Shown one piece after another: positions 2,183 through 40,949 of a stretch of DNA of 64,000 bases. Under the pieces are notes generated by a model, which saw only the letters and a program-made list of their open reading frames with translations, did not search any database and was not told the DNA's origin. Origin of the DNA: Lingula anatina (Eukaryota; Animalia; Brachiopoda); the NCBI GenBank assembly GCA_051362555.1, contig CM120640.1:57328788-57392787 (forward strand). The letters are read 5' to 3'. Made by a program: the position numbers and the translations under genes. Numbering within the stretch: the stretch's first letter is position 1; each line of letters starts with the position of its first letter.

Positions 2183-11988
<9,806 letters not shown>

Positions 11989-12618
11989 GCTGTGTCGGGT
12001 TCTGAGTAAAAGAAGGAATGTAATACGATTAAAACAGAGAGAAATGGAAAACAAATTTTATAGAAAATTTATCTAAAAGACAAATTATTATTATGCTTTG
12101 ATTTACATTCTGATAGTTTTTTATTACAAAATGACCATAAACGCGAAATTCCAATCTCTGCCTGTAATCTATATTTTAGAAGTAGCCATTCATCAATGGT
12201 TATTTTACTGTTTAGTAATAATTTTTTACTGAGGCATATGTTATATGAACAAGTGGATATTTTTTTTAATTGTTTAATGGTATGCTTTTGCTGTCAAATG
12301 AACGCCCACTTTTACTAAAATCAAACATGTATCGATTGAAAAACTGCAGAGCCCGCTATCTTCAGTGGCGCTATCTGGTGTATGCGCATGAATATATGTG
12401 TAAAAGATGTGTTTTTCTTGAGTTATGTGATATTTTGTTGATTTTTAGCTCAGAACATTGGGTGATTAATATAGATTAATATAGATATGTATCTTCAAAG
12501 TTTCTTCCATTCTTGTTTCTTAATATGTTTGCTAGTTCCGAACTATTTTCGGCAGGTGCGTGCAGCTTTTAAGTCGCCATTTTGATTAAAAGCGTGTACG
12601 AGTGGAAGACGATCAAAA
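11989..12618. promoter_or_regulatory. Putative bidirectional promoter shared by CARM1 and the KHDRBS gene
   Basis: The divergent ATGs are only 630 bp apart. The interval has a YY1-type CGCCATTTT at 12575-12583, an NRF1-like TGCGCATG at 12383-12390 and a CTCF-like stretch near 12366-12381. Motif assignments are inference. Confidence 0.7.
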
Positions 12619-18600: not shown

Positions 18601-20302
18601 AAATTGACCTTTGACCTACTTTTCACCATGAACTGAACTTTGTAAATTTTGCTTCCTTTTTATCTCCAAATTTACGCTGTATCAAAAAGTACATATTGGT
18701 GGTGAAAGCAAAATGTGCAGTACGGTAATGGATAATTAATTTTGAACTCCAGAAAAACAAAACAGAAGGCTTGGCAAAGCAGGCAACTTGTGGTCAAAAA
18801 TGACATTGTTTCATCAAATTAGAACATCTGGAACCTCAGAGCACCTCCCATTTCAAGAATTTTGACCAAAATGACCTTTTCTTTATTTTGATTAATTTTT
18901 TCTGTAGGAAATTTATGGCACATTATGGTAACTCCAAAATTATAACATTTAGTCCCTTATATCTCCAAAACTGGCAGAGATAGGTCCATAGTTACTATTG
19001 AAGTTGAATAGGAAGTCATATACTGGCAATCTTACTGTGACCTTGAAATTGACCTTTGACCTACTTTTTACCATGAACTGAACTTTGCAAATTTTGCTTC
19101 CCTTTTATCTCCAAAACGTGCAGAGATAGGTCCATAGTTACTATTGAACTTGAATATGAAGTCATATACTGACAATCTAAATGTGACCTTGAAATTGACC
19201 TTTGACCTACTTTTCACCATGAACTGAACTTTGCAAATTTTGCTTCCCTTTTATCTCCAAAACTGGCAGAGATAGGTCCATAATTACTATTGAACTTGAA
19301 TGGGAAGTCATATACTGGCAATCTTACTGTGACCTTGAAATTGACCTTTGACCTACTTTTCATCACATGAACTTTGCAAATTTTGCTTCCCTTTTTATTT
19401 CCAAAACTGGCAGAGATAGGTCCATAGTTACTATTGAGGTTGAATAGGAAGTCATATACTGGCAATCTTACTGTGACCTTGAAATTGACCTTTGACCTAC
19501 TTTTCACCATAAATTGAACTTTGCAAACTTTGCTTCCCTTTTATCTCCAAAACTGGCAGAGATAGGTCCATAGTTACTGTTGTATTGAATAGGAAGTCAT
19601 ACTGGCAATCTGAATGTGACCTTGAAATTGACCTTTGACCTACTTTTCACCATGAACTGAACTTTGCAAATTTTGCTTCCCTTTTATCTCCAAATTTACG
19701 CTGTATCAAAAAGTACATATTGGTGGTGAAAGCAAAATGTGCAGTACGGTAATGGATAATTAATTTTGAACTCCAGAAAAATAAAACATAAGGCTTGGCA
19801 AAGCAGGCAACTTGTGGTCAAAAATGACATTATTTCATCAAATTAGAACATCTGGAACTTCAGAGCACCTCCCATTTCAAGAATTTTGACCAAAATGACC
19901 TTTTCTTTATTTTAATTAATTTTTTCTGTAGGAAATTTATAGCACATTATGGTAACTGCAAAATTATAACATTTAGTCCCTTATATCTCCAAAACTGGCA
20001 GAGATAGGTCCATAGTTACTATTGAAGTTGAATAGAAAGTCATATACTGACCATTTTTAATTATATTTTTTTGTATATTTTGAGAACTCCTGTTGATTGC
20101 ATTTTATAGAGCTTGTCAAGCACAAGACTGGTGATGGTGTCCCTTTTTGGAGGGGGGGGGTCCATACGAATGCGCTTACTCCAGCTGGTGGTACAATATC
20201 CGGAGGCGGTATCGCCTCTCTGATCCTCTAGTTTTATTTATTATTTATTTTATTTTATTATTTTTTTATTTTTATTTATTTATTTTATTTATTTATTTAT
20301 TT

Positions 20303-20335
<33 letters not shown>

Positions 20336-23251
20336 CTGCAATCTAAACATGATATCCATGGAAGACCAATATTACTTCAGCCTTCAAGAGACTTAACAAA
20401 GAGGAGTGAAAAGAACGAGATTTCTTTTAACTCTAAAAACATTATTTTAGGAGGAAGAGTGCCGGAAAGAGGGTGGCAAGTACGCACATTTGAATGAAGA
20501 ACTCCATGTGTTGGTGGAGGTGTTTGCTCCTCCTGCAGAAGCTTACTCTAGACTGTCACATGCTATGGCTGAACTAAGGAAGTACTTAACCCCAGTAAGT
20601 ACCACCTTTTTGCCAGTATATGACATTTCTAAAACTAACCTGATCTTTTTATGGATTTAGAAAACATAATTGTTATTATTCATAGGCATAAATTACTTTG
20701 GCTGGGGGTTATTGGGGCTAGGTGCATCAGGGCAATAATGATGACAGTGTGACTGAAAAAGTGGCAAAACAAATATTGGCTGTTTCCTCTCGGTTATGTT
20801 GTATAAGACTCCATTCCCACAGATTTTAGATCGATCTATCCCTGTGGGGAGTCTCACTAGATTACTGTCAGCTTAGCCGGCTTAAGCGTCTGTCCCGCGG
20901 ACTATATGCTGTAAGGGGGTAATTAACTGTCGTGCACGCTCAGCTGACTGCGTGAACCCCCAGGGATGGAACGATCTAAATCTCTGGGAATGCACTCTAA
21001 GAATCTAGTATGGCTCTGGACCTATGCCATGAAACAAAATTCATGATTTTTGCTGTGTATAGCAAGGCAATTTTATGATCTTTATATTTTAATTGCAGGA
21101 ATACAATGATGAGATCCGACAGGAACAGTTCCAGGAGCTGATGAACTTGGGTGACCCAGGCAGTGCCGGGGCTCCAAGAGGAAGAGGGGGAAGAGGACGT
21201 GGCATGCCTGGTGGACCAGCCCCCAGGGGAAGAGGGGCTATGGGTGGGGGTCCATTGGGAAGGTGATTAGAGACAGGATATCTCGGACGTTGGAAATGTT
21301 AAAAATTTTAATAGCCAGTTTAGTAATGAAAAATTGCCAAAATTAGTAACTATTTTAAGTATTAAATGTCAAAAAAAGGCCATAGCAATTTCCTGTCTAT
21401 TTTTAGGGGAAGTGCAATGGGGCGTGGTGGTATACCTGCTGGCCGTGGGGCGTCACGAGGGGGATTGTTGTCTGGGCGTGGTGCGATGGGTGGGGGTATG
21501 GTGCCTCCACCAGCACCTACACCATTAGTTGGAAGAGGAGCCCTTGCTAGAGAGCCAGACTATGATGATGGTTATGTGAGTAGATTCCTTCGGCCAGTAC
21601 ATTTGTTAACACCATAACTGGATCTTTACTGCTTAATTTCTGTATATGTGCTCAATTTGCCAGTTTTCTCTCACTAGCTTCAGATTGGAGAATCATAAAA
21701 TGTCTTCCTAATTTACATGTAAATGAAACACAGAAATTTATGATTATCAACAGAAATCCTCATTGCCATAGATATCAGCAGTTTGTTGCATACTTAACCC
21801 TTATTCAATTCTATTATATGCCTTAAATAAACTTTATTTCTTGAACTAGTGCACAATGTCCATAGAAGATTTTGCCTTTAAATTTGATATGTAATAAACT
21901 GCTTCACAATATGGTATTTTGAACAAAGAAGTCAAAACCTCATTAGAAACTTAGTAGTTACCAGTGGACTTATATGTAGTTTCATTTCAAATATTTTTAG
22001 AAAATAATATATTAACTATGATAAATGATAGTATTGTTGTTTCTTTCAGATATTTGTTGGTTAATTGAAGGCTGGTTGTTATCATTCAACAAGATAATTC
22101 TGTTTTTTAGGGTGCTGGTTATGATGATGCCTATGGAGAAAGCAGCTACAGTGCAGGGGGAAGAGATGCTTATGAGGAGGATTACTCTGCAGGAGGTGCA
22201 AGGTTAGTTGCAAGCTTGGAATTGAGAGGAATTACTGTATTTCACATCAAGAGGAATCTTTCCATGTGTTGACATCTATTTCATTATGTTATGGCTAAAA
22301 CCAAGGTGTGCTTGCTGTATTCTTTGCATGATGCTCCTGGTCCTGGTCAGGTGTTTTACCTGTCTTTCCAGTGGTTACACCTTGGTCTTCTCAGCCTATA
22401 CTGACAACAAGATCATAGTGCTGCCAGGAGACTCTGTGCTCAAGGCTGTCTCCAATCTCTGTGACATTGTCATTATATAACCAAAATGTTAAATCCTCAT
22501 ATATTAGTTACATAGGTTATGGTTAATAACAGTACTTCAATAAAGGTGAAGTGTTCTGTGGCCAATGGATTAAGAGTAAATGCGTGACATAAGACAACAT
22601 TGTTGAATGTTTAATGTGCACTTGACATTTTGACATGGTGATTTATACAGTATTGTTTTGTACCTATTTTCAGTGATTCACAAAATGTTGACTATCCAAA
22701 ATTAAATTTAATTTTCTGTGTTAAAAAATTTTCAGTGACACACAGTACTTTGATTATGGACATGGGTCTACTGCAACAAGGGACAGATATGATGATGCAG
22801 GATATGGTGAGCCAGACAGGAATTTTATACAGTGCATGTTTTGATTATATAAATTTATCAGTTATGTAGTTGGGTCATGGTCAGTTAATTTTTAATAGGT
22901 TCTAAGTATATGAGAAAACATGTTAGTCAATATTTGGATGGCTTACTGCCTATTTTGAGCATGGGAATGTCCAGTGGTTATAGCCCCTTTACTGTAACCA
23001 AGTGAACACATGATTTTTTTCCCTTCAAGATATTTCCTTTTATACATGCTATTTCTATAATTCTGGATCCAGTGAACACTGCAGTATATATTTGCCAACA
23101 ATATTTCAGCGGACTTTATGACATTTCACTTCTAGGTGATTCATGGGGATCTGGAAGCCTAGGAGGTGGTCGTGGTAGTGGTAGCACATACAAAGCTCCA
23201 ACAAGTCTTAGAGCAGCACCAAGGCAACACCCATATGGGCGGGGTTACTAA
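12619..23251 (+). CDS. KHDRBS: KHDRBS/Sam68/SLM-family STAR (KH-domain) RNA-binding protein, 9 exons, ~376 aa
   Basis: Exons: 12619-12763, 16077-16189, 16309-16425, 20451-20594, 21099-21262, 21407-21575, 22111-22202, 22736-22806, 23136-23251. All are GT-AG and in frame (1131 nt). The protein has QUA1-like AARLLDKEIEQV, maxi-[41 protein letters not shown]...[13 protein letters not shown]2 [14 protein letters not shown], an RG/RGG region, a Tyr-rich tail and C-terminal RQHPYGRGY* resembling the Sam68 PY-NLS. The vertebrate paralog (1/2/3) cannot be assigned. Confidence 0.95.
13467..13679. mobile_element. PIF/Harbinger-like MITE with an internal tandem duplication
   Basis: TIR GGCTCCGTATCT.GAAAGGTTCGCTATGTTGC, 3-bp TSD CTG (13464-13466, 13680-13682), and a ~70-bp internal direct duplication. 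Confidence 0.8.
13721..15632 (+). mobile_element. Internally deleted hAT transposon with 5-bp TSD in KHDRBS intron 1
   Basis: TIR CAGGGGTCGAAATGTT at both ends and TSD CAACC (13716-13720, 15633-15637). TTTCCC/GGGAAA subterminal repeats occur at both ends, and transposase remnants are inside. Confidence 0.88.
15045..15330 (+). pseudogene. Frameshifted C-terminal hAT transposase fragment
   Basis: [13 protein letters not shown] followed, after frameshifts, by [25 protein letters not shown]. The latter resembles the start of the hAT dimerisation domain (YPNL..L..I.L.LPVSTA..ER.FS) but is truncated before ERxFS. Confidence 0.7.
16474..20235 (+). mobile_element. Non-autonomous Helentron-type element (HINE/DINE-1-like) with central satellite, filling KHDRBS intron 3
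   Basis: 5' T-run followed by subTIR ATTGTACCACCAGC (16478-16491) with an adjacent partial inverted copy (16498-16509) and a (CCGCCGGCT)n microsatellite. Central tandem repeats are followed by a perfect 3' subTIR GCTGGTGGTACAAT (20184-20197), a GAGGCG-GTAT-CGCCTC hairpin (20203-20218) and a CTAGTTTT end. Confidence 0.85.
17210..20050 (+). repeat. Higher-order tandem array: ~290-bp unit S and 146-bp monomer M arranged S-M8-S-M5-S-M(partial)
   Basis: Monomer starts (ATCTCCAAAAC or close variant) at 17495, 17641, 17787, 17933, 18079, 18225, 18371, 18516; then 18961, 19107, 19253, 19397, 19543; partial at 19985. S units (GCTGTATCA.AAAGTACATATTGG...) start at ~17210, ~18676 and ~19700. Confidence 0.95.
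20807..20997. mobile_element. Old Harbinger-like MITE in KHDRBS intron 4
   Basis: Imperfect ~40-bp inverted ends (CATTCCCA...TTTAGATCG / CGATCTAAA...TGGGAATG) with TAA on both sides (20804-20806, 20998-21000). Confidence 0.6.
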
Positions 23252-25857
23252 AGCTGGCAGCCCATGTTTGGCACCTGCCTGTGGACCTGTGTCAGCTATT
23301 GAAGACTACCCAGGAAGCTTTGTTGGCAATGGCACATCAGAGGTAGCCTAGTCCACACACACAATTGGCAGTCAAAAATAGTATATAATAATATGTAACA
23401 ATGGTCACACCTTAAACTCCAATTAGACTGAAAAAAATAATAGCCCTGAAGAACACTCATAACTTCAATTTGAAAAACTGATGTGTGCACAGAAAAACTG
23501 CCCATGATGTCTTTAGTTTTAAAACTTGAACAGTATAATCAAATATCTTGTAAAAAAAAAAACTTTCAAGTAATGGCCTTTTATCATCATTATCAGCATG
23601 GCCAGGGTTGAGCCTTTTAACATATGGTGTGACTTTCTAGGAAATCCTAGTTTATTTTTATGTAAATGTATTTTCGTAGCTTTGTAAAAAAGAAAAATAA
23701 GCTCTTTTTTGCTGAAAAATATGAGTAGATTGAAGTATCATATGAAAAATCAGAATGAGTAATGTATGTTGGGATGTTTTCAAGAAAGTGAATACAATTA
23801 ATGAATATCCATTTGTATATAAGCCAGTTGCACTCAAACTTGTAAAATGTTTTCCATTGAAATATATCAATTAGAAATTTATAAAGCAAAATATATATGA
23901 TGCAAAGCAGTTGATCAGTAGACGTTCTGTCAGCTGCATTATATTAATCGCCAGGTTTACAGTGTTGCCACAAAGCTGCATAAAAAAAAAAAGAAATTAA
24001 TGATTTAATGTCATTTTTTAAATAACCATGCATCAAATAACATTTTTTAAATGAGTTAATGAGGTCCGTCTTTGTTTTACTAGACCCTAGCATGTGCAAA
24101 GGGGCTTGATTTTAATGTAAATGCACCTGATTGCAGTACTTTGATATGTTTGTACAAAAAATATATTTGTCCTCATGGTCGTTTAAAATTAAGGTGTAAA
24201 ATCAAACGTGGCAACACTGATAAATGCTAGGCTAGTGTTTATGTAATATGCTTCGATTAAATGTGTACAAATAAACAAAAACCTAATTACTTTTGTTTGT
24301 TAACAGGAATGATTCCACAAGATGCTGAGAGTTAACTTGAATGGCTTTAAATGTTAAGTTCTGAACTCGTGTAGGGATCCTTATCCTCTAAACATTTCAT
24401 AACTCATTAGTTTGGTTACTATAAACAATGTAAACAACAATACTATAAACAATTTTTAATTTAAGAATCTGGCATTTTATGAAGTTAAAAATTTTTTTAA
24501 TCTTTGTATTCTTTAATTATCTGAATGTAAATGGTGTCAGAACTACATAGCAACAAACTGAACTTGTATCTGACTTGACAACACTACTAGTTGAGGTACC
24601 AATTTTAATTTTCTAAATACACACTGAAAGAGAAAAGAAAAAACAAACAAACAAAAAAAAGATGATGATAGAAATGTAAACCTCCAGTAAGCAGCAGACA
24701 GACATCCCAGATTTAATGCTGTCCAGGTAACGTAACTAGTAATGTCCAGAAATTGAAGCAAAATGTTTACATGATTTCAAGCAACATCGGCTTCTGGTTA
24801 TTGTTCAAGATGAGGATTGACTATTTGCTTGAAGGTTTGCTCTAATGCTAATTAAGAAGTTGTGAAATTAAAATTACATCATTTTTTTAATATTCAATTT
24901 CTTATAATTTGGACTAATGGTGGGTTATCTTTTTATACAATAATTTAATGGTGTGCACTACTGTTGTTAATTTTATGTCTAACCTTTTCTTTTTCCAATT
25001 TTAGGGTCCATAAATTCTTTTCCCTTGTGAGATGGAAATGTGACTCCTGTCACCACATGGCCTACGCTGGTGTGACCCACTTGTCTGGGAGATCTTGACA
25101 TCAATGCCAAAAAAACTTGCAAACTGTGATGCATGAGACTGGATGATGTTGATGCATTGAATGTATTACGTCTTTCAAACTGCGCTGTAATAAGATCGAT
25201 GCAGTTTTACATTTTGGGTGCCCAGAATTGATAACTTTTCCTTTCTATAGAATTTTAACAAATTTTAGTGTAAATCCATACAAAATTGATAAGTGGACAA
25301 AATTTTTCGTCCAGTATAATGTGGGCAATTTTAGAACAAAAAAGCAACAGTATTACTAAGCTCTTCCTAGGGTTTGATCTATTGTTAATTTCTCCCACTT
25401 TCAAACTTCATGTCCACTGCTTTATTTATTATTACTTATTTTTTTCCATTTACAAATTACAAGAGTAGGGAAAATTCATGGGAAAAAATACCCTCGTCTA
25501 CCAACATCAATTTTTTTCTAGGCTAATGTAAACTTTAATGTAAAAACTATATATTTTTATTTTTGATATTTTTACAAGTAAAAGTCCTTTAAACTGTTGT
25601 GTTTGTGCTTTTGTTATACATTTGGTGTGTGTTTGTGGCTTGTTCAAGATTTTCTTGTACCAACATTCAAGAAGAAGGAACACTTGACAAAGGGGCTCTC
25701 TGTACTAGATGTCGGCCGAGTGTTAGTTACATGCAAAGATTATTGCTGGACGAAGTTTTTTTTTAACTGCCTGACATAGTCCAGCCTGATTGCTTACAAA
25801 TGCAATTTCATGCACATCTTCCCTTAATGAAAACATAACGTGGAACATAAACTACAG

Positions 25858-26136
25858 GGCCCAGTTTTATAAAGGACGTTTAGCACTAACCAGTGGTTAA
25901 ATTCTCCTAACGCCCATTAACTAAAAGATGGTTAAAATTGTGTTTCATAAACGGCGTTTAAATAGCCGGTTAGTTAACAGTCCAGTGTTTAACAGGATAT
26001 AATATTTAAAGGTCAGTTAACTAACCGGCTGTTTAAACTCTGCTTATGAAACACAATTTCAACCGTCGTTTAGTTAACGGGTGTTAGGAGAATTTATCCA
26101 CTGGTTAGTGCTGAACGTCCTTTATGAAACTGGGCC
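25858..26136. mobile_element. Palindromic PIF/Harbinger-like MITE
   Basis: GGCCCAGTTT.ATAAAGGACGTT.AGCACTAACCAGTGG... folds back over ~120 bp per arm. TSD is CAG (25855-25857, 26137-26139). Confidence 0.88.
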
Positions 26137-26721
26137 CAGATGTTTAAGTATGGTTGTGATGCCAATATAAAGCTCAAGTGGAACTAGCTGTGTTGTCACA
26201 TGCAGCAAGAACTGTGTCACAATGTGGTATATTTTAACAATAATAATAATAAATTATTGAGCACAATAATGTTATTGCATTTATAAGCTCTCTGGCTTCT
26301 AAAAGAAGGATCAACACAATGTAAGTACACAAAAAGACACTAATAGGTGGACAAGACCTCTGATAATGCTTGTTTGACACAAGTCATTTTAACATAACCT
26401 TACTCAAAACTTCTACAGCAGTCACCCTGCGAAAAGGATAGATTTTAAGAAATTGTGTAAAGTTGTCTAACCTTGTCTACTTAACCCTGCAAGTTTTAAT
26501 GGGATTATTGGGAATAAGTTGTGGCAAAGATTATCAAGAGGGCTTTGTCATGCCCTACGTTCCAAAGCTTAGTCGTGGTGCATCGCATCATGGACAACAT
26601 TTAACTAAATGAAATAATTTACAAAAAATGTTACATAAAATCATGCAAATAAAGTTTTTCATAACTAGCGTGTGTTAGGTTTGATCCATTCGCCGAGTCG
26701 CTGATGACAGCAAGTGGATCG

Positions 26722-26920
26722 CAGTGGTGGATTTACAGGGGGGTTCTGGCTCCCCCCCTTCGATTTCTGGTCCCCTCTTGAAATTAGAATTTTGACTTGC
26801 TGAATTATAGTTCTAAACCGTACCAAAATGGCACCGTTCGACCTCTAAAATACCAAAAATTTTCGGCGCTCTTGAGCGGACCCCCCCCCCCCCCCTTCAA
26901 ATAATCCTGGATCGCACTTG
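26722..26920. mobile_element. Diverged copy of the same hAT-like MITE family as 40950-41212
   Basis: Shares the CAGTGGYGGAT start, AAATTAGAATTTTGACT.GCTGAAT, AACCGTACCAAA and TTCAAAT.ATCCTGGATC near the end. No TSD is visible. Confidence 0.7.
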
Positions 26921-28690
26921 AAATTACCACCTGCAGGATTTATTCAATAGTCATTAGAGTAAACGTGCAACTGATACATTAAAAACCCTTAAGATATTTA
27001 ACAATGCCTGTGATACATACATAAAGAAAGTGTATAACACTGTCTCCATGCCCCTTGTTCATCGTTTGATAGGATTGTGCTAGATGAGATTTGCACAATC
27101 GGGACAAGTCGCTTATCCCCAGGATTTACTTGCATTATGGTCCGCATAAGCGTTTTATAGGTTTGGGTAGCTACTAAAAATCAATGAAAAATGTGAAACA
27201 AGAGAGCTCGTTTCTACTATGGTTATACAAACTTTTTTTTTTTGAAAGAAAATATAAAATTTGCAATATAAAAAAATCTCGTTACTCCCTTATGAATGGG
27301 CATGCTGTAGATAACAATAATTGCTTGGTTGGAAGGCCACACAAAATGCTCAGTCATGAACAGACAGAGATAGGAGTTGCGACAGAAGTCATTAAGCCTA
27401 CAATACAGTGAACAGGCTGGTGATTTGTCGAAAGGTTTTCCAGAACACTTCAGTAACCATAAATAGTACGGAACCTTGTAAAATGGTGTAACCGAGCTCA
27501 TATATCTTTGGACAGTGCCTTCCAACAATGGGATGCTGATAACAATGTTAAAATATTGCAGTGGTATCACAAGACAAATAATAGGAAGAACGACACTGAT
27601 TATGTAGGATGGCATCGATATGATAGATGGCCTAAATGTGGACATGATACACCCTAGATTACAATGTACTAAATGTGTTTTCACCCAAATAAGAGAATAA
27701 AATAAATAATTGAGGATGTAGTTTCATAAATAGAATATTACATAATACAAACCAATCGAACTTAAGATTTCACATTTGCTAGTATAGCAAATGATAATAA
27801 TAATAGTAAATAAAATAATAATAGTAATAATAATGATAATGATGATGTCCGTATAGCTTGGGCAGATAATTTGGATTCTTAGGCAGGTTCTAACAGGCAA
27901 ACTAACATCTGACCATGAAATACATGTTGTAGGCAAAATTTCGATGTAGACTATATGACGTCCTAGGTTGGAGCTTCTGGCGTTACTTTCCTTGTACTGT
28001 ATTAAATTTGGTAATGAATTCAAAGGTGTCATACAAAGTCAAGAAAAAAGCATCATTGCCGTACACTGTCATACATGTATATACATGCAAACCTATTTTA
28101 ATAATAATTAAAATTGATCTACATACCAGCAGTCATTATTATTAACAAGAGACGGTTTTTGTTGACATCTTTAATAGCTGAAAGCCAGTTTCTTTTTTCC
28201 TGTTTCTTTCTTAGAATATAAGAAATACAAAGAAATTATTATGCATCATTAAATACAATGTTTCTTCCGAGGTGGAGTGAAAATTAAATGTCGTGTAAGT
28301 GTAGTCTTAATTCCGAAATGTTTTATACAGTGTGTGGTTGGTTAACCACAACCTCTTTACCCCATATCGCATCGAGCTTTTCTACTCATGATACAAAACT
28401 GCGAAGTAGTCATCATTTGACAAATATGCGTACAGGAAAATCAGAGTTTACCGTATCCTTATTCAATAAACCATTTTAACACAGTCCCCATCCCTCAAGA
28501 AAAAAGACACCCTCTGCTAAAAGATGCTAATTATTAACCGCGAAACAAAAAGTGCCGTGCTCAGTAAACATGGGTATGAATAAACATTGTAAAGACAATT
28601 GTTGACGTTCCTAACATTAAACTGTAAGCTAGTGTGGTTCTCTGTCAGGTGCGTGGTCCGATATGCGTGACAGTGTCACTTAAAGCTGCC

Positions 28691-31251
28691 CAGGTGTACT
28701 ACAGACTTGGTGGCGGGGCTGTGGTGATAAACATGACAGGGCCGTAAAATGCAGGTTTCGTTCCCACACTTAACTCGACACTAACAAAGTTATACACCAC
28801 ATAGCAAGCTTACGCAATCTTATTTGTTTTGATCCTTCTCATGTATCATTGACAAAATGGAGACACAACAACGTATTTTATACGTATCTTCGTTCAGCTG
28901 TGCACGGTGAGGATCTGTATAACACTTGAAGTTTAATTTAAACAACTACCAAGTAATTTACGGTAGTGAGGAAAGGACACGTGCATAGATACGGCGTGTA
29001 AAGGAATGCGGAGGTGTCCACGTGCAAAGCTGGGGAGATAACACCTCTGTATAGATTGACCAGGACGCCGCAGGTGGGCTGCAGACTCAGTGGCGCCGGG
29101 ATAATGACACCCAACACTTCAAATAAAACATCCGACGATTTGTTGGGAGATGGGGGGGGGGGGGGGGGATATTGGGGGGGGGGGGTAAATTTATGTGCAG
29201 ACTTAAATTAAGTGGGTTTTTTTCAGCATAAAAAACGTTGGCTTTCGAGTAAAGTGGTAACTTGTTTAAAGGGATTATGTCAGATTGCGATACTATCACT
29301 TCGTGGCGTTAGATATTGACTTTTAATATTTCCATAAAATATGTTCATTATATTAGTAATCGGCAATAGAGACAATATTATATAGAAATTGCTTAATTAT
29401 TTGACATCTTTAAACCCATAAGTGTAATGAAACCACCTTACTAAATAAGAAAGTAGATTTATTTGTGACTACACCTACCTCGAGTGTTGCATTTTATTAA
29501 TATATCACATAATATTGAATAATCATTATCTTCAAGAATGGTATGACTGATAATCTTGCGCAAAGGAGTCAAACAGAAACAATAAACAATCATTTATTCG
29601 ATATCTACTGTTTCTGAAATGATCATCTAATCCCCTGACTGCTACATACAAAAAAAAGGATTTCCTAACATTCATTGTATAAAATGAACAAAATATCTTT
29701 GTAAATTAGTGCGTTATATATCTATTATATGACGTTTTTCTTTCATTTTGTCCGTTTATTGTTAAGATTCTTTTGATAATAACCGCATTCAAAAGATGAC
29801 CAAGCATAATGTACTCCCGCAGCACACCTCAAGCCGTACGTTGTTGTTGTCAAAATGCGTGGTTCACGTAACATTTAAAGAATGGGCTGGTTTTTCCACG
29901 CTCATCGCCGTCAAGTTTGTGCTTGCACTCGTTAAGAAGGTGTGAAGACATTCATAGTTCTTCACAGAAGGACGTGAAGGAATTTGGTGTGTATGTGTAT
30001 GTTGATAGCTGGTACTTAGACTGGCACAGGTGCAGCGTAGACTGACTGGCGACGGCGAGGAGCTTTCAGGTCACATGACGAACCTATCTTTGCACACCTG
30101 GAAGCACTGAATGTATTATTGTGTTGTTACCTGAGTGTCTGACGGGCAAGCAAGGGAGCATCCGTGTGTGCACTACTTACGTGATGACTTTGTTTTGTAG
30201 AAGTCAGATAGATTGAAATAGCCAAAATGATTTTAAAATATTTACACCAAGATAATGTTAAAACGGTTTTAACATTTTTTACTCTTTTAGTTTTCTTAAT
30301 ACTAAAGTTTGGACATGAAAAGTTCAATGATTCAAATTACTAAGGACCTTCTATTACTTTCTGCAGCATTTAAAACTGTTCTTCAGAATCTTTGTACTCA
30401 ATTGTTCAATTATCAGTAGATAAATTTTCAACTTTCTGAACAATATTTTTTATCACACTTTTCAAGTGGACAGTCGTTCTAGCTAGCAATTTCATTAAAT
30501 AATTTATTGTAATTTTTCTCGTTTGATCCCCAGAACAATGATTTCTTCACATGATATCTAATCGTCTGCTCCAATATGATAAATAATGTTAATTTTCAGT
30601 ACTTCAGCTAGGGACAATAAGTCTGTTATCCACGCACCTGCCCTCCCTTAGATAAGGACCTTGATAATACTGTAAGCTTTGCTCTTCAACTATTTTAACG
30701 CGTTGTGAATATAGCTTTTTCAATAAAAACAAACGTATAAACCCGCATCAGCGCGACACCTCCATAACACCGAAGTATAATGAAACTACATGAAAAAAGT
30801 TGCGGTGGCAGGAAAGGTCGCGAAAAATTGCCATTTTCACATAAACAAACAGGTGTTCGGGTACTACTTGTCATAATCAAATCTAACTTGGAGCACTATT
30901 TTTATCGCCTATTCTATTTGCAAGTTTATCAACTTAAAACTCCACTTCTCACAGTGACTCTCATCACGCACAAGGCTGCAATGGACGGCACACCTGTGAT
31001 CAAAGATCATTGTCATGTGACTAATAACTGTCAAGCAAACAGCCACGTAAATACTGTGCAACAAGGAAGAGTTACTTGATACGCGCCAACATTGTGTAAT
31101 AAAATGGGTTATAAATTAGATTAGAAGCTCGTTTAATGGAAAGGAAATTACAACTCTTCGACTCCATAGTGTTACTCTGAGACAATACCAATACAACTAC
31201 TAGTATACCTTTAAAATACAAGATAATGAAAAGACGTCTTTTATCTTGCTA

Positions 31252-31294
<43 letters not shown>

Positions 31295-32456
31295 TTTTAA
31301 GCATTTGTGTATTTGTTCATTTTCATTTTATTTCATAATATTTATATGTTTATATATTTGATGAAACAGAAAAAATCTTTAAAAAACAGTACCTGAGAGT
31401 GTTTAGAATAAATGGCCTTAATGGGTATGAATCGCAGTTCTTTCGAGTTGATTTTGTAGGACATACAGAACAAAGCCGCAACAACGGCGACATGAGTAGG
31501 CAATTTTTAAACCACAAATTACACAGATGAATATCGCGTCGCAAGCCTACATGTACTTCACTGGCTTTATGGTAGTTATCATTGAAATATGTTTTATATA
31601 GCAGAAAACCAATTCTGGTCGATTTCTCATAAATAAACTGGTCTAAATAATTTTAATCAAATATATTTTGTACTTTGTATCGGTTTTCTAATTAAACGAG
31701 CATATTTTAAGTAATGCATGGTTTCTTTTTTCTTTATTCACGTTCAATCAACTTAGAGTTAAGTTGCCTTTAATCAAGTCAGCTTTTTCATTTGATATTC
31801 AGAAGCAGGGAAATACATCAAAGAAACCATCTTATGGTAAAACCCATTTTATTAAATGTTTCAGCTCCTTCAACAGGTGGGAGGATTGTCCCTCTGTCTG
31901 TACAGATAAAACTGTTATTTCTATAATTACATTTTAATATATTTTCTCATTATCTCACTGCTAAGTTCCCGTCGCTTTTTCTGTGGCACCGCTGCGCATT
32001 GTAGTAAGGCGCCGTAATGAGTTGCACTTGATCAGTTTTCTACACTAGCCGATCGTGCTCAAAGTGGGAGATTAATCGGAGGATATTTTGCCCTTTTTAT
32101 TTATCGTGAAAACATTTAATGTGTAGGAATGTAAACAAGCTCTCACCTTGATAAGTGAGCGTTCGACTAAGCCCAGGTGGGCTGCAGACAGACTGGCGTC
32201 GTCGCGTTTGCATAGTCACCGGAGTGTAAACAAAGTTCTACTGTGAACCATGGGCGCATATCTCAGGTGTGGGGGAGAGCCACCCGTACAAAACACTCAT
32301 CATCCCACAGACGTATTACTGATTGCACGCTATGATTAGATTTGAAAAGCAAGGTAACAAAAAGATTTAGCGATACCTCTTTGTCCAGTTTCGATATACT
32401 GCGATTTAGGACCTGTTAAGTCTGCATTAAAGCCAAGTCGCAGACATAGTGTCGCC
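28691..32456 (+). promoter_or_regulatory. Cluster of Smad composite elements (AGAC-N5-GNCG), four coupled to a CAGGTG E-box at fixed spacing; likely ID distal enhancers
   Basis: Sites are at 28691-28717, 29071-29097, 30027-30053 and 32174-32200, plus an E-box-less site at 32441-32456. Those at 29082, 32185 and 32441 match the GRCGNC-N5-GTCTG Smad1/5-Smad4 consensus on the reverse strand. Confidence 0.7.
31253..31294. repeat. (ATT)n microsatellite
   Basis: Direct reading. Confidence 0.95.
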
Positions 32457-35400
32457 TGGACCACAAATTAGGTGGTGCGTTTCACACCTGAAGGTTGCTC
32501 TGCAATTTACCTTTCCACGTGAATACAAAAGTCGAATCAACACGAGGTGTTCATGCAACCGAAGAAGAAATAGAAAACAAACAAACATCCACGTAGATAT
32601 ATAACAATACAAGAGAAAGGCGGGCCCAGCTGGGAAAACTATACAGTCCCCACGCACCTTGATCCGTAAACCTCCCCGACACTAAGGGCACCAATGTCAG
32701 GGGCGTCTTTAAGAATGTATTGCCTTCAGTTGTGTAATGGAATGCATGGGGACGAATACTGGAAAAAAGTTGAAAAGTTCAAGTCCTTATTGCACTCCTT
32801 TTAACCCATTCTTTTCCGTTGGCTTCGTGTGGAAGGCAACTATTGAACTGCACACCTGTTGGAATATAATACTCACTGTACCAAATATACATAGAATCAA
32901 TGCCAGTGTGGAAAGTTAGGTAATAATAGTATAAATCACCCACTGCTTGCGAGAGGCTGCCCCATGATGAACCCGATGCTATTTTAAAACAGCCACGATT
33001 TATAGTTTACGCAACACCAGTTTTCTAAACATATATGGTTACCTGGCTTTTAAATAAGATTCTACGCAACGCATTAAGAGAAAATGCGTGTTGGTATAAT
33101 CTAACTCAAATGTTATCATGATTATAATGATAAAATGTTAGTTAAACAAGTTGATTAAATCAAAATTTGAGCCAAAGAAAAAAAGATAAAAAAGCGGTTA
33201 ACTTTTAATTATTATATAAATTTTAAGTTGAAATATAATCACTTAAATTTTATAAATTATAATATAATGAAAACAAATTCTGAAGATGGCCAATTGATAA
33301 CCAATTGAAATGAATAAAAAAGAATATTAATAAGAATGAAAAGCACCTTACAAAGAAAACCTTTTTAATGTTTATTACGTTGCGTGAGAGCGGATAAAAC
33401 GAGAAGAATCACTTGAAGAATTTTCACAGTTGTCGCAAGAAGCAAAATATATTTATTTTAGATATTTTACATGATATAAATCAGTTTAGATTATACAGTG
33501 CCCACATATGTGTATAAATACATTTGTTTGTTTGAAAATCTTTTTTTTTTCTTTTAATTATGATTTTATAATGAATATGAACATATTGAACAAGTTTGTA
33601 GAAGTCAGTCATCAAACTGATAGTGTGGCAAATGTAAGCCGAGTTGAGAAGTTATGATGTTGTAATACTAATATTTTGTGAAAAAGCACTCTACGTTGCA
33701 AACACACAGGTTAACTATTATCAAATTATGAATCAAATTGAAGTCTTATTCAGTTGGAAAGCAACGTTTCGTTGCTCTGAGACTCGATGAAAATTACCCG
33801 CGAAATAGATATTGTCAGAATTATTGATGGCCGTTTTCTTTACGAGTGTCATATTTTAGCGCAAGCCTTTTAATGCCTACAATAATAGACTGTTTTTATT
33901 ATGAAATCTTCGCAACGATTAAGAAAATTTATCATTATTTTCGGGGGAAATTCTACATGTTATGGGGTTTCTGACACCACGCTGTCCCCATCTCAAAGCC
34001 TTCAAACATCACACCATACACTGGATACTGATTTATGAATCGTTGAACATATCTTGGAGGTATGCTGGCAATCTAGAAAAAGCGTCAGCTGTTGCTTTAG
34101 GTAAGAGCCTACGTTCAAAATTAAAAAAAAAAAATGTAGGCCTGTACTTTTTACAGACGGTTAAGCTTAACTGAGAGAACCGTTCGACTTCATTGCTGAA
34201 CATTTGCCTACTTGATGGTTGCAATCTATTTCAATTCTTAGTATGACAAATGAAATCTAGTATCATGTAATGCCCTACACCATTTAGCGTAAAATTCCAT
34301 GGATAGACTTTTAACAATCAAAATGTACATTATATTGAATAACAATGGCAATCAAGACGTTACGACATTAAAGAGGATCATTTGACGGGTCCTCATTGTA
34401 GTTTTTTTTTAGTTTTTTCTAATTTGGCTGTATAACAGATTCGCTGAAACAAACTTCACGATAACAACAGAGTGCCAATGTACGCTTTGGTGTAATTTTT
34501 GCAATGAAGCATTTAAAGAGAGGTTGCTTGTTATTGACAACGGTTTTTGCTGACAGACAGAATCAGAGGGAATCTGATTTTAAAAAAGAAATCAAAATGT
34601 GTTTTTGCACAATATTTGTTTGATCAATAAAATTCCGACGGTCAGAAGTTTCACCCAAATCCTCGATAATGAACTGCTTAAGGAACTACCCCTTTGTCTG
34701 CCACCTTCCAGTGAATGAAGAGGTAAACAAGCGTGGTAATATGTAGTCGTTTGAACAGCTGCCGGCTTGTGACGTAGCGCGTCTCTGATTGGCTACTGTC
34801 GGTTATCAGTGACATTGGCACGCGACTGCATTTACTCAGGTAATGGCGGCTTTATCGATAACAAAAGAAAATGTCACTAAGTCCCTCCTCCCTATGGAAA
34901 TATAATACAAATGGCACGCGCCATACTCTTTCTGCACACTCAGCCACGCGACCACAAACTAGTAAGTTCTCCTACAAATTTCTTTAGATATTTTTTACAA
35001 AAATGAAAGAAGTGAAATTTTTGGAAGACTTTTACAGACGACAGACTGTCCAGATGCCGGAATCGTGGGTCTGGCAGCTGGATTTTTTGCCAGCCCGTAT
35101 TCCGAGTGTGGGAAAGTTGAAGCAGATGCATTCTCATGAGGTAAGCTCTTTGTTTAGCAGCAGATGGGACAGATGGCCCAAGCCATACTGGACAACTACC
35201 TGGATCTCACCTGGAACTTCTTCCATGGGAAAATTCAACTTTAAACTAAGATAAACAAATTGCTATTTATTATTATTGTTGTTTCCTAAGAATCAGTGGA
35301 ACAACTCTCCATCTGGTGTAATTTGTGTGATAGATATAGCTGAATAATTAACCCATTTATATTACTACTTATTAATTTAACGTTATAATTCACAAGTTCC

Positions 35401-35696
35401 AATAAAATTGATATATCAGGGGCGCTGATGTTCATCCCATAAAAAATCTAACAATTTTTTTTGCAGGATGATATAGTGAAGCATTATTATCATTTGTTTA
35501 AAAAAAGGAGTGGGAGCACTTTAAAACGAGAAAATTAAGGGCGACATCTTATAAAAATCTGTTTGATTGTGCTTATTGTCATTAAAACAGAAGTGGTAAG
35601 AGGATAATGATTTAGAACTAAAACTAAATGTGCAATTCCTATGGCACTTTGACACTTTTTACAATTCAAAATAAATATTTTTTCTGGATGCAGTTA

Positions 35697-35697
<1 letters not shown>

Positions 35698-35737
<40 letters not shown>

Positions 35738-35857
35738 TGTGTGTGTGACAAAAAGAAATAAAAACAGCACAACTGCTGTTTTTTATTTCTTTTTGACACA
35801 CACACACACACACAGAAATAAAAAAAACAGCAGTTGTGATGTTTTTATTTCTTTTTG

Positions 35858-35922
<65 letters not shown>
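35698..35922. repeat. Compound (GT)n/(CA)n/(AT)n microsatellite with an internal inverted duplication
   Basis: (GT)n 35707-35747, inverted ~45-bp arms around (CA)n, then (AT)n 35860-35922. Confidence 0.9.
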
Positions 35923-35923
<1 letters not shown>

Positions 35924-36607
35924 TCGTACAGGAAAAACACTTACTTTCAATATATATAATTATTATTTTATTTAAATTAATAGTAAATCAAAGAAACCAA
36001 GCCGTGCCTTGATATGCACTGGTATGTGTATGTGTGCCTAAAGTTCAGATCTCCATATTTTACAATTATTCATATGATGGAAGGGATCGCTTTTTTTTTT
36101 TTTTTTACTTGAAGTGTTTTTATTTTCACATATTTATTTTAAAAAACTATTTTAATCTAGATTTTAGACATCCCACTATTATATCAACATCTGTTTTCTG
36201 TTGTTTTATTGTTCGATAGAACGTGTATTTAATTCTCTCTTAATTTAGCGCTTTACTCTTTACAGGTGCGACGATACCACCTGCGAGGCGATTCGGGAGT
36301 AAGAGGAAACTCGTGACATCTTTATGTAGGCTTCAATAACTTCAACAATAATATTACGCCTAAATGTGCGGTGAGAGCATTGAGATAGAGTGGAGTTATT
36401 TAGTAGATGGCCAAGTTTGGGTATTTATTTTTCCTAAATCCTTGTGCGGGCCTGGCGCCGAAGTAAATTCAACCAACAACAGTAAAATACACATGAATTT
36501 ATGCAAATGTGCAGGTGTTCAGAGTGTGAAAGATCTACAGGCCGAAGGTGACGAATTGTAATGCAATTTATCAGTCACCGGTGAGCGGAGGCTTTGATGT
36601 ACACCTT

Positions 36608-36712
36608 GATTGGCAGTGTTGTTACTATAGCGACCGCCGGCCCGGCGCCGAGTCGATGGCTGTATACACAGTATGAATGGGTGACGTCACACGGCTGGCG
36701 CCACACTGCCGG
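36608..36712 (+). promoter_or_regulatory. BMP/Smad-ATF response enhancer resembling the vertebrate ID1 BRE (Bicore1-like)
   Basis: X-box-like GTTACTATAGCGAC 36621-36634, GGCGCC 36644-36649, perfect CRE palindrome GTGACGTCAC 36681-36690 and a second GGCGCC 36697-36702. The element is ~0.6 kb upstream of the ID ATG. Confidence 0.8.
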
Positions 36713-37019
36713 GGGCAGCTGTTGTTGATTGTTGCTTGTTCTCGCCAATTTATCACTTGTCAAACCTGATCGGGTGTCATGTGAAAAATATATACACAAG
36801 AGCTATGGGAATTTAAATTATTCAGCAAACTAAAGGACTCTTGACCACTACTTCACAGTGAAATCTCCTTTTTCATCATATCTATATTTTAAGACCACGT
36901 GCGAGCTCAAGTAGCGTTCTATTATGGTGGGAAAGTAATCAAGTCACCCCAGTTGGCGGTGGGAATCGGCCTAAAGGGGGTGGAGCTTATCACAATAGGT
37001 ATGAAGAATCCTTGATGTT

Positions 37020-37120
37020 GATTGGTGGGAAGGATTCATCCCTGCCAATCAAGTGCCTTCAAGTGCTCAAATTGTTTGTACATAATTAATCGCGAGGCGG
37101 TGCTCAGCAGGATATATAAT
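37020..37120 (+). promoter_or_regulatory. ID core promoter (TATA and CCAAT boxes)
   Basis: TATATAA at 37113-37119, ~140 bp upstream of the ATG. ATTGG at 37021-37025 and CCAAT at ~37045. Confidence 0.7.
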
Positions 37121-37258
37121 GAGAGTATATTCAGCCTGGAAATACACTTCACATCATTCCTTAGCTCGATCGAAACGAGAGAGGACACGAAAGATACCTT
37201 AACTTGTATCAGCATTTTTATCTATTTTAGTCAACGGATATTTACATTTAATATCAAT

Positions 37259-38276
37259 ATGAAGGCTCAGATGAAGGAAACCATCGCTGCAGAACACCCA
37301 GCCCTGAACACATTGAAGGCAAAAATTACTAAGGAGAAAAATAACGATGCCGCTGCGGAAATTCAAGCCTGCTTCGCGAAGTTGAAGGATTTAGTACCAA
37401 CAGTCCCACAGAATAAGAAAGTGTCAAAGGTGGCGTTGATTCAACACGTTATTGACTATATTATGGACTTGGAGTCCGCGCTGGACTATCACCCAATGAT
37501 GAATTTGGCAACTTTATCGTCATTGACCTCTGGTCTCTCCAGACCCCCTCTAATAGAGAGCTCACAGCTCAACAAACAGGTGGGTGTTAACTAAATTGTC
37601 ATGTTGTTTCTATAATTATGTTTGCAATTTAATGATAAAATATTTACAACTTTTAAACACATATTACGACAAACAGTCATATCTACAAGATGGAAATGGA
37701 AAGGGGAAGTATTAACGAGCACTGAATATGGCCTTCAAGACGGGTGTTTTTGAGATGTAGTGATGCATTGAAATATTTTGACACATTGGTGAGTCAGGCA
37801 ACCATATGTCATGCTACTGTACAATTGCAGTCGGCAAATGATGTATTGAAACAATACCATTGCTGATATTTCTCTTAAATATTTTACGAGGAACTGATTA
37901 AAGCATTGACTGCACCTGGGAAATATTGCAAATGGAAAGTTATTATTAATATTGTTATCCGCAAGCTATTGTCCTTCCGCTATGCAGGTGCAGTTGCATG
38001 AGAAATGATTGGCCTGTATCCAAAGAGCGTGATATTTGATATATTTCACGAGGACAGCTGCCTCTTGACACTCAATCACATGATATGCGTAATATCGTAC
38101 GAAGCTATACCAAATAAAATGCATTTCATATCTGATGTCCCGTGGGTCCATATATCATTCAAAAGAAGAACATTTCTGATGCCCTTTTGTTATCTTTTTT
38201 CTAGGAATCTAGCTACACTGAAGAAATGGAAGCTTCTGATGCTGATAGCTGTGAATCTCGGCCCCCGTCTTGCTGA
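37259..38276 (+). CDS. ID: Inhibitor of DNA binding (ID / extramacrochaetae) HLH protein, 2 coding exons, 130 aa
   Basis: Exon 1 is 37259-37579 (MKA...[39 protein letters not shown], an HLH lacking a basic region) and ends at CAG|GTGGG. Exon 2 is 38205-38276 (ESSYTEE...RPPSC*), after a polypyrimidine tract/TAG acceptor. A probable 3'UTR intron runs 38315-39083. Confidence 0.95.
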
Positions 38277-40949
38277 CTCTACACGATCAAGATCAAGAAT
38301 CGTTTAACTTACTGGTAGGTTTATATTCAAACATCCTCTGCAATCTCCTTCTTTATTCCACTGTCTGCTAATCAATATAGTGCTCTGTCGACCTTAGATG
38401 CAGTGAAAACAGACATTTCTCCTGAAAATCAATATTGTAATTGGGATTTGGGAAGGATTTTGCTTTACTTGCGAGCCAACATTTTCTCAACAGAAATATA
38501 CGAGGAAATTAACATTACTACCAACTGCACCTGGCCTAAAAAGCTTCTCTGTTAGGTTAATCATGTCTGTTTAATTGCTTGATGCTTGTTTGGGAGTCGC
38601 TGATCGTGAGAAATCTCCGATGGGCACATGCAGCAGGGCCCAGAGCATTTTTGCACGGGTTGCCATACCCACCTGCGCATCTGGCTATTGTCAAAGCTAC
38701 CTCCTGGCATTTATGATCGTACAAACTTTGACAGGCTGGCATGGTGAGAAGCCAAAACATCAAAACCTTCAGGGCCCCATTTCATAAAAATGCCAGTAGA
38801 TGTGCAGCTGCGGAAGATTCGATTCCCAAAACAAATTGAGTCGATATTTTATAAATGCACTTAGTTTCCGTGCGGAGTCGCATCTGTGGGTAGAGTGGAT
38901 AGACAGGCGGGCACCAGCGTGTTTTTATAGACCCATCATTTGTTTTTCTTTAACAATTTACCCAGATGTTTTCTGTTCAGACGGATGTTTTACTGTGCGT
39001 TACTTTCAAGTTCACGTGAAGTGATACTTTGACTTAAGATGCTATCACGTATTAGCTAAATTTTCTCTTTCTGTTCTTTCCAGATAAAACCACCCAATTT
39101 AGTGTCTCCGTGAAGATACAAACACACTATCGCGCTGGCAGCTGCTGACTGATACTGACACCTGGCGACAGCGGTGATGGTCTTTTTTGGGCTCCCAATC
39201 AGCAAAATGATACGCAACGCCATGGGACATGGCAGACAAACCAACTAAACATAGGTGCCAGGACCAAAGAACAATGAGACAAAATAAATTTCCGTCTCCC
39301 CGCACGACGCCAGTGTTTTTGACGATCATGAATCAAATGGTGCTAAAGCTGTGTACAGCACCTGACACCCAGAGCCCGGCTATGGAGAGTAGCGTGTGGC
39401 GCCAAGGTGCTCGACAGCAAACATTACAACTCAGGGATTTAATCATCACGGGACAACGCACGAGAGAAACCTCCAACCACCTTGTGTCAAAGCAAGGGTT
39501 TGAAAGGAAAACTGAAAACGTGACTAACTTTTGATATCTTTTTGTTGTATGCACGTGAAGTTGGACGTTGAGTCCCGTTTTGTAGATTTTTATTTTCTTT
39601 CGACATCTTGTAAAAATCACCCATGTACTTTAAGTAATAATTTGGGGCTATAGCTAGATATATGTGACCGGTTCACATAGTGTATTGTAACATTCGGTCG
39701 TTGTCTATTGATTTGACGGCTTCATCCTCATCCCATTATCATGACACGGTGACAGCTTGAATGTAATCGACATGAAGCCATTTCTCATTAATTGTTCCAC
39801 GAAATCGATCCTCGATGGTCGTATATAACCACAGCAAACATCTGTTATGTGGTAAACCTGCTTTTACATTGGGTTATCACCCAAACCCAATATAGAGGTG
39901 CAAACGATGTCACAGGCATGTTCCTAAAAATATGTAGTGCACAGATTACAAACTATGATTGATTATTTTAGGGTCCCACATAAAGAAGTTTGTACTAAAG
40001 TTTCACTTTCCTGGAACCACGAATAATAAAAAATAATTAATCATCTAATCCCAAAAAAGAACATACGTTACTGTCACAAATGCATAACGTCTAGCTGTGG
40101 AAAAGTTTTAATCACTTTGAAAATTCAATCATCACGGGTTTTGTTCTTTAATTTATCTCCTACATGTATAACGTTGTAAAAAATTCCGAAAAGATTATGT
40201 ATAGAGCAGTTAATTGTTTTTTAGCGACATAAGTTTGCCTGTCACTGAATATTAAAAAAACGGGGAAAATACACCCTACCGACAGTAAAATAAGCATTTG
40301 ATAAATTATTTTTCCACTCGTGCTCGAATTATTATATCTGAAATGTCAAACTATCATGGAATCACTATATATTTTTCGATCAGCAAAAGAAAACGTTGTT
40401 TTTTTCTTGCACCAAGTACTTAAACAAAGAGAAACATTTTGTCAATTTTTCTAGGGAACATACGTTACCTAGTATTAGCCATGATGCAAAGTCCCATTAG
40501 TTACAGTTAAAATATTAATAAAAACGTCTTACTTCATATTTAATTTAACTTGATCGAATCACTTCAAAATATATAGGAACACGGTATAAGAATTAAAATT
40601 AGGTGGCCTGGAACATACGTTACCGGAACATACGTTACCAGTGGAAAAGCTATTTGTGTTCGAAACCAGCTCCGAAAGAAAAACTAGCTCCTGATCGAGA
40701 TGTCACGTGATTCTTTTTGACGTCTGCTCGAGCTAACGTTAATTAGTGCGTGAGTTGAGGTGAGTTATAAGTGTAAAGACAACATAAAATCCTCAGTGAT
40801 TATGTAGACGAAGTAAATGATTTTGCCGTAATAATAATGTTATGTACATTCTATCAAATACTTTAAGAAATAAATGTCAAACAAGACTATGCTATGAAAA
40901 AAATAATCGCCAACTAGTGCATTGAGTGCAGTGCCAATTAAATACATTG

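Follow-up and report, generated by a model that had tools for sequence, protein, structure and literature searches.

The ID locus of Lingula anatina

We analyzed a 64-kb stretch of Lingula anatina DNA (the window, meaning the whole of that stretch), in which an HLH-only ID gene on the plus strand lies downstream of four copies of a three-part motif. The original prediction had assumed such a gene, and it is real: its HLH domain matches Pfam PF00010 (E 2.8e-11), and the first 107 residues of ID are identical to the NCBI protein named Lingula anatina DNA-binding protein inhibitor ID-2. The four copies are located 5.1-8.6 kb upstream of its start codon. The gene and its immediate upstream region contain the following features:

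34807..35138, plus strand: upstream exon of ID, joined to 36264 by a GT..AG splice in the two spliced-contig runs
36422..36800, plus strand: known proximal Id enhancer (Bicore1, or the Id enhancer of Frith and Ni), which holds GGCGCC-N5-GCCG-N4-CAGCTG at 36697
37259..37579, plus strand: ID coding exon, HLH protein of 107 codons, with the start codon at 37259; further exons at about 38204-38313 and 39083-39877

The cover of the upstream KH-domain gene ends near 25.8 kb in the spliced-contig runs and the upstream ID exon starts at 34807; therefore, the four copies are intergenic. An alternative ID transcript, in which 34807-35138 is joined to 36264, runs through the proximal enhancer, and there is a CCAAT-like site at about 34786. 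Exons of neighboring genes were found at 6261-23251 and 59511-61148, with the KH-domain protein on the plus strand (Pfam match); by eye, single exons without Pfam support resemble CARM1 (minus strand, upstream) and a phospholipid phosphatase (minus strand, downstream). An intronless ORF of 806 aa at 41298-43718 (plus strand) has no Pfam match and looks transposase-like by eye; the G-rich stretches flanking it resemble those near 29143-29186. A 139-nt inverted repeat at 25845-26149 and a high-copy short repeat at about 26768-26913 (depth in the tens of thousands) are likely to be small mobile elements. BMP signaling is active in the Lingula embryo and patterns it (PMC13121700); the main text, preprint passages and three supplements of that paper do not mention ID.

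Sequence and distribution of the four copies

An exact search of the window for CAGGTG-N5-YAGAC-N5-GGCG returned four matches (28691, 29071, 30027 and 32174), all on the plus strand, compared to none in 100 dinucleotide shuffles, so that the four same-strand 27-mers originally predicted are borne out. The last letter of the second spacer is fixed as well, the pattern reading CAGGTG-N5-YAGAC-N4-TGGCG in all four copies. The copies, and a related element downstream of them, are:

28691..28718, plus strand: copy 1; E-box, N5, CAGAC, N4-T, GGCGGG; weakest GC half
29071..29098, plus strand: copy 2; E-box, N5, CAGAC, N4-T, GGCGCC; read from the minus strand, an exact match to the ID-type BMP element (definition of PMC11907993)
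30027..30054, plus strand: copy 3; E-box, N5, TAGAC, N4-T, GGCGAC
32174..32201, plus strand: copy 4; E-box, N5, CAGAC, N4-T, GGCGTC
32441..32456, plus strand: fifth Smad-type element, CAGAC-N5-GTCGCC, without an E-box at the fixed distance

The 15 positions claimed to be invariant are so, and two more were found: a C at position -2 and a G three bases after GGCG. Every AGAC-N5-GGCG site in the window (4/4) is accompanied by CAGGTG at the identical distance, with no case at other distances of 0-15 in either orientation. A search of the window with the 28-nt consensus, allowing up to three mismatches, detected no copy beyond the four. CAGGTG itself is frequent, with 57 occurrences in 64 kb; a post hoc estimate of chance occurrence, with the choice of hexamer free and 42 possible positions, comes to about 1e-8. 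The four-copy motif is real and non-random.

On the opposite strand, the motif takes the form GC hexamer-N5-GTCT-N6-CACCTG. The GC site and the GTCT site stand back to back across a 5-bp gap in 4/4 copies, and the centers of the three sites are 10, 11 and 21 bp apart, i.e., in helical phase. The original prediction linked the motif to the Smad element AGAC-N5-GGCGYC, and a BMP/Smad reading agrees with published definitions (PMC11907993, PMC9508838). The full GGCGCC hexamer occurs in copy 2 only, the other-strand readings being CCCGCC in copy 1, GTCGCC in copy 3 and GACGCC in copy 4. The invariant part of the hexamer across the four copies is the linker-side CGCC. Copy 1 deviates from the GNCGNC consensus; GRCGNC-N5-GTCTG is matched strictly by copies 2 and 4, and the relaxed GNCGNC-N5-GTCT by three of the four.

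If the 27-mers were remnants of a dispersed repeat or of transposon ends, or splice-site-like strings without a regulatory role, homology extending into the flanks and numerous genomic copies would be expected. Neither was found by flank alignment, repeat finder and DNA depth, the count of degenerate copies being that of the window. In an alignment of the 190-nt stretches around the copies, likeness stops at the motif edge and the flanks are unrelated; the repeat finder reported one 34-nt family with four copies (62-74%). The depth at copies 1, 3 and 4 is that of single-copy DNA in two runs (87-112 in run X2 and 48 in X4), compared to thousands at true repeats nearby; the depth bin of copy 2 is confounded by a poly-G run, and the single-copy statement covers the other three. 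Furthermore, the identical motif is found upstream of ID in two other animals (see below) whose ID proteins are only about 45% identical to that of Lingula. The original prediction of a selected grammar, as opposed to a repeat family, is thus supported by the unalignable flanks, the single-copy depth at copies 1, 3 and 4 and the recurrence of the spacing. The four copies are not a young repeat family; the view that they are repeats or have no role is already largely refuted, and we consider it extremely improbable.

It should be noted that no listed within-species difference in runs X2, X4 and X8 falls inside a 27-mer, where only about one is expected, too few to be informative, and X8 leaves copies 1-3 uncovered. 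Run X11 of organism B covers the motifs only by low-complexity pieces. One poly(A) RNA run (about 6% read, no positive control), which we do not count as evidence, gave no reads on 28300-32700 except at the poly-G run.

Recurrence of the spacing at other ID loci

The held-out set comprised 73 ID-relative loci, many of them short or redundant, from metagenome contigs (284,796 nt), retrieved with an alignment of 44 ID proteins. YAGAC-N5-GGCG occurs at 19 sites in these loci, or 18 distinct sites after merging one duplicate. CAGGTG stands beside them at N5 in three cases (once in locus L125 and twice in L190), at N6 in one (L125) and nowhere else between spacings 0 and 20, in keeping with the predicted preference for N5 over shifted spacings. 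When CAGSTG was counted, the numbers were five at N5, one at N6 and two at N9, and 12 of the 18 sites lacked CAGSTG at both N5 and N6. At the N5 register, CAGCTG comes from two related bivalves (the bivalve-type loci L127 and L130) and belongs to a different element. The spacing is not absolute, the second L125 site being one base longer (N6). The binomial p is 1e-7 for 3/18, 4e-5 counting two animals, and 4e-4 for three lineages compared to the local off-register rate; it should be kept in mind that the seven exact copies (four in the window and three held-out) may share one old ancestor and are not independent trials.

The exact motif did not occur in 60 shuffles of the held-out loci. A phage control (120 of about 240 loci) showed no preference for N5, with 15, 27, 9, 15 and 14 distinct matches at N3 to N7, respectively. 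All three held-out exact copies share with the window copies their orientation and their location upstream of ID, and all three retain the T before GGCG and the G three bases after it, both of which had been left free in the search. Among the loci with about 3 kb or more upstream, 2/12 carry the exact motif and L130 carries the CAGCTG form; it is absent from two of the four loci with at least 5 kb upstream (L178 and L189), both of which also have no match to the proximal enhancer. Downstream of the bivalve-type ID in L127 (3690, minus strand), there is a full Smad element with CAGGTT in the N5 register, i.e., one base from an E-box and not an E-box. Offset-15 matches in L160-163 and L169 were dropped as chance, since they lie inside the ID coding sequence and fit a looser pattern.

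The ID protein of L125 is 45% identical to the query over 79 residues and that of L190 is 43% identical over 74 residues; with identities this low, the two animals are distant from Lingula. L125 probably falls in a clade with an N-terminus like that of the annelid Ridgeia protein, and L190 appears to form a long branch whose N-terminus is gastropod-like. L127 and L130 are placed among heterodont bivalves (80-83% to named proteins; quick-tree support 98). Judged by these sequence comparisons, the motif with the predicted spacing is conserved in at least two distant animals.

The original prediction also proposed an alignment of ID loci. Copy 4 matches L125 (81% over 62 nt) at the same distance from ID:

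32149..32154, plus strand: GATA-like site, 25 nt before copy 4; its L125 counterpart is 14 nt before the L125 copy
32170..32230, plus strand: conserved block around copy 4, in common with L125 2951-3012 (blastn, 80.6% over 62 nt, E 2.5e-7)
32226..32232, plus strand: forkhead-like site, 52 nt downstream of the first base of copy 4 (53 nt at the L125 copy)

The block lies 5.09 kb upstream of the ID start in the window and 5.04 kb upstream in L125, in the same orientation. One A/T-rich stretch aside, it is the sole strong non-coding match outside the proximal enhancer (blastn, window 24001-40000 against the 73 loci). The GATA-like and forkhead-like sites, which we take to be such from their consensus, are displaced between the two loci by 11 and 1 nt, respectively, whereas both inner spacers are unshifted. 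A second possible shared non-coding block (window 27182-27214 and L125 13258-13290, minus strand; 85% over 33 nt, E 0.098) is upstream of ID in the window and downstream of ID in L125.

The proximal Id enhancer

The distal copies are a different element set from the known proximal Id enhancer. The segment 36422-36800 appears in Fig S28 (supplement of PMC10735318) as the shamisen shell row and matches loci L123, L125, L127, L130, L139, L142 and L143 (blastn). Like this Bicore1, or bilaterian Id enhancer (Clarke 2012; Frith and Ni Fig S28), the distal copies are deeply conserved, Smad-site-bearing, non-coding and upstream of ID. However, Bicore1 is 4-8 kb closer to the gene and contains an ATF palindrome with flanking GC/Smad sites; the distal copies have no ATF palindrome, the homologue of the published alignment is 36422-36800, and the text of Fig S28 does not contain the distal copies.

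The E-box of the proximal enhancer (CAGCTG; window 36697-36715) is at offset 13 after the GC site, with a GNCG site, two bases closer than in the distal copies. Offset 13 is also seen in two rows of the published alignment (PMC10735318), those of velvet worm and peanut worm, where comparisons rest on unbroken row segments of partly disordered text; the header text of Fig S28 shows no E-box label. In the bivalve-type proximal element (L127 2063 and L130 2755), CAGCTG is at offset 15, with GTCT.

Possible mechanism and alternatives

We propose that the four copies are likely cores of BMP-responsive ID enhancers, a reading that we consider about evenly balanced between right and wrong. The GC and AGAC parts would be sites for a Smad1/5-Smad4 complex, with a bHLH dimer containing an E protein as the likely occupant of the adjoining E-box. 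The BMP/Smad part of this proposal fits the published element definitions (PMC11907993, PMC9508838). Given the distances of 10, 11 and 21 bp, the three sites are expected to share one face of the helix, and the bound factors could cooperate. Such a ternary Smad/E-box complex may form; one CAGGTG site (L125) is one base off. BMP would then switch ID on only in the presence of free E protein; the resulting ID protein would take away the E-protein partner, limiting its own induction. In published work on other animals, E proteins increase ID/emc expression and are themselves inhibited by ID, and the Da-emc feedback is described as conserved (PMC3961188). An E-protein bHLH partner is favored because of this conserved feedback and because CAGCTG replaces CAGGTG in register in L127 and L130, both CAGCTG and CAGGTG/CACCTG being Daughterless sites (PMC3961188).

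Two other readings are serious rivals. The same BMP elements may use CAGGTG to bind a ZEB/Zfh1 or Snail repressor that contacts the Smad complex, so that ID is kept off in some of the cells receiving BMP. Zeb sites are CACCT(G), and Zeb2 binds CACCTG half-sites and phospho-Smads and regulates Id2, with Smad sites close to Zeb2-bound E-boxes (PMC10048071). In this respect, it is relevant that all seven distal copies read CAGGTG, never CAGCTG, and that copies 1, 3 and 4, like one L190 copy, have another CAGGTG/CACCTG at a distance of 45-90 nt, as bipartite ZEB binding would need; given the 57 occurrences of CAGGTG in the window, such second sites are weak evidence. An argument against a ZEB or Snail repressor is that L127 and L130 have CAGCTG at this register. 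Snail prefers a purine before CAGGTG, which is absent in copies 1 and 4. We consider gating by such a repressor unlikely. Alternatively, all copies might derive from one old core by local duplication, the three sites being selected and the 5-nt gap merely inherited, without any spacing-dependent complex. Copies 2 and 4 share all five bases of the first spacer; copies 3, 4 and L125 share 3-4 of the four bases of the second; indels will seldom strike a gap of just 5 nt; one L125 site is longer by one base; and the Smad6 promoter tolerates N3 and N4 (PMC10735318). Yet most other pairs of copies are at background in the spacers and 40-nt flanks, and hence old, while 7/8 of the CAGGTG-linked distal sites keep N5, and the bivalve-type proximal element seems to have arrived at offset 15 independently, the layout having offset 13 in Lingula, velvet worm and peanut worm. 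Mere inheritance of the gap therefore seems quite improbable to us.

A Schnurri-type silencer, through which BMP would repress ID or the upstream KH-domain gene and in which the E-box would bind the quenched activator, is suggested by the match of copies 2 and 4 to the Drosophila silencer consensus GRCGNC-N5-GTCTG (PMC9508838). Conversely, this motif has an activating effect on ID1-3 reporters in human cells (PMC11907993) and on genes in fly neurons (PMC9508838), id is BMP-induced in the sea urchin (PMC3410860), and in L125 and L190 the motif goes together with ID, which makes a silencer very unlikely.

Within the preferred reading of BMP-responsive enhancers, a stronger version is tentative and, in our judgment, somewhat doubtful: a spacing-dependent Smad1/5-Smad4-E-protein complex, kept since brachiopods separated from other spiralians, would act as an AND gate, with ID stripping the partner from its own enhancers. 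If this is true, the distal copies, the Smad6 promoter and the proximal Id enhancer would jointly point to a Smad pair plus in-phase E-box as an ancient syntax general to BMP feedback genes. It has yet to be explained how a single BMP signal leads to cell-specific output, and there are few Smad cofactors with a fixed DNA geometry. The motif would offer a 28-bp, naturally repeated test case, conserved across lineages at a core BMP target, in which the E-box with its 5-bp gap is the one clear variable, and this in an animal in whose embryos BMP can already be raised and blocked. The copies also point to conserved distal enhancers of ID, which screens anchored on vertebrates would overlook.

Comparison with known elements

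One of the closest known systems is the ID-type BMP element, GGCGCC-N5-GTCTG, of vertebrate ID1/2/3, which answers to BMP and needs the 5-bp gap (PMC11907993). In reporters, this element depends on orientation and on the linker-side C, and the 5-bp spacing is essential for GC-GC pairs; the last C of the linker-side CGCC is essential, whereas a change of the outer G is partly tolerated (PMC11907993). The window copies are alike in the back-to-back GC and Smad4-type sites, the 5-bp gap and the nearby ID gene, but the full GGCGCC with GTCTG is present in one of the four (copy 2), and the others keep the linker-side CGCC alone. The Drosophila elements are BMP-SE, GRCGNC-N5-GTCTG, and BMP-AE, GGCGCCA-N4-GNCV (PMC9508838); the A adjoining the GC hexamer in BMP-AE is also found in the window copies.

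Smad sites combined with an E-box are known from feedback inhibitor genes of BMP/TGF-beta signaling. The SMAD7 promoter has an SBE and E-box pair, in which the E-box is needed for TAL1-SMAD3 activation (PMC5889486), and TFE3-Smad3 is listed as a cofactor pair (PMC11063908). The Smad6 promoter of human, many invertebrates, Lingula and corals carries GCGCC-N5-GTCTAGAC-N3 or N4-E-box, labeled E2F, Smad and E-box (PMC10735318, supplement Fig S21). The order of parts, i.e., GC site, N5, GTCT and E-box, is the same in the window copies. The Smad6 element differs in having a palindromic GTCTAGAC, an E-box of the CACGTG/CACATG/CATATG type (CAYRTG, 3-4 nt away) at a variable offset of 16 or 17 after the GC hexamer, and a single promoter copy, whereas the window copies have a non-palindromic site, CACCTG, offset 15 and several distal copies at ID. 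The original suggestion that the three-part grammar is undescribed thus holds for the version with a CACCTG-type box at offset 15 repeated in distal ID enhancers, which was not found in the open-access literature searched, but not for the layout: the window motif is a variant of a GC-SBE-E-box arrangement already in print.
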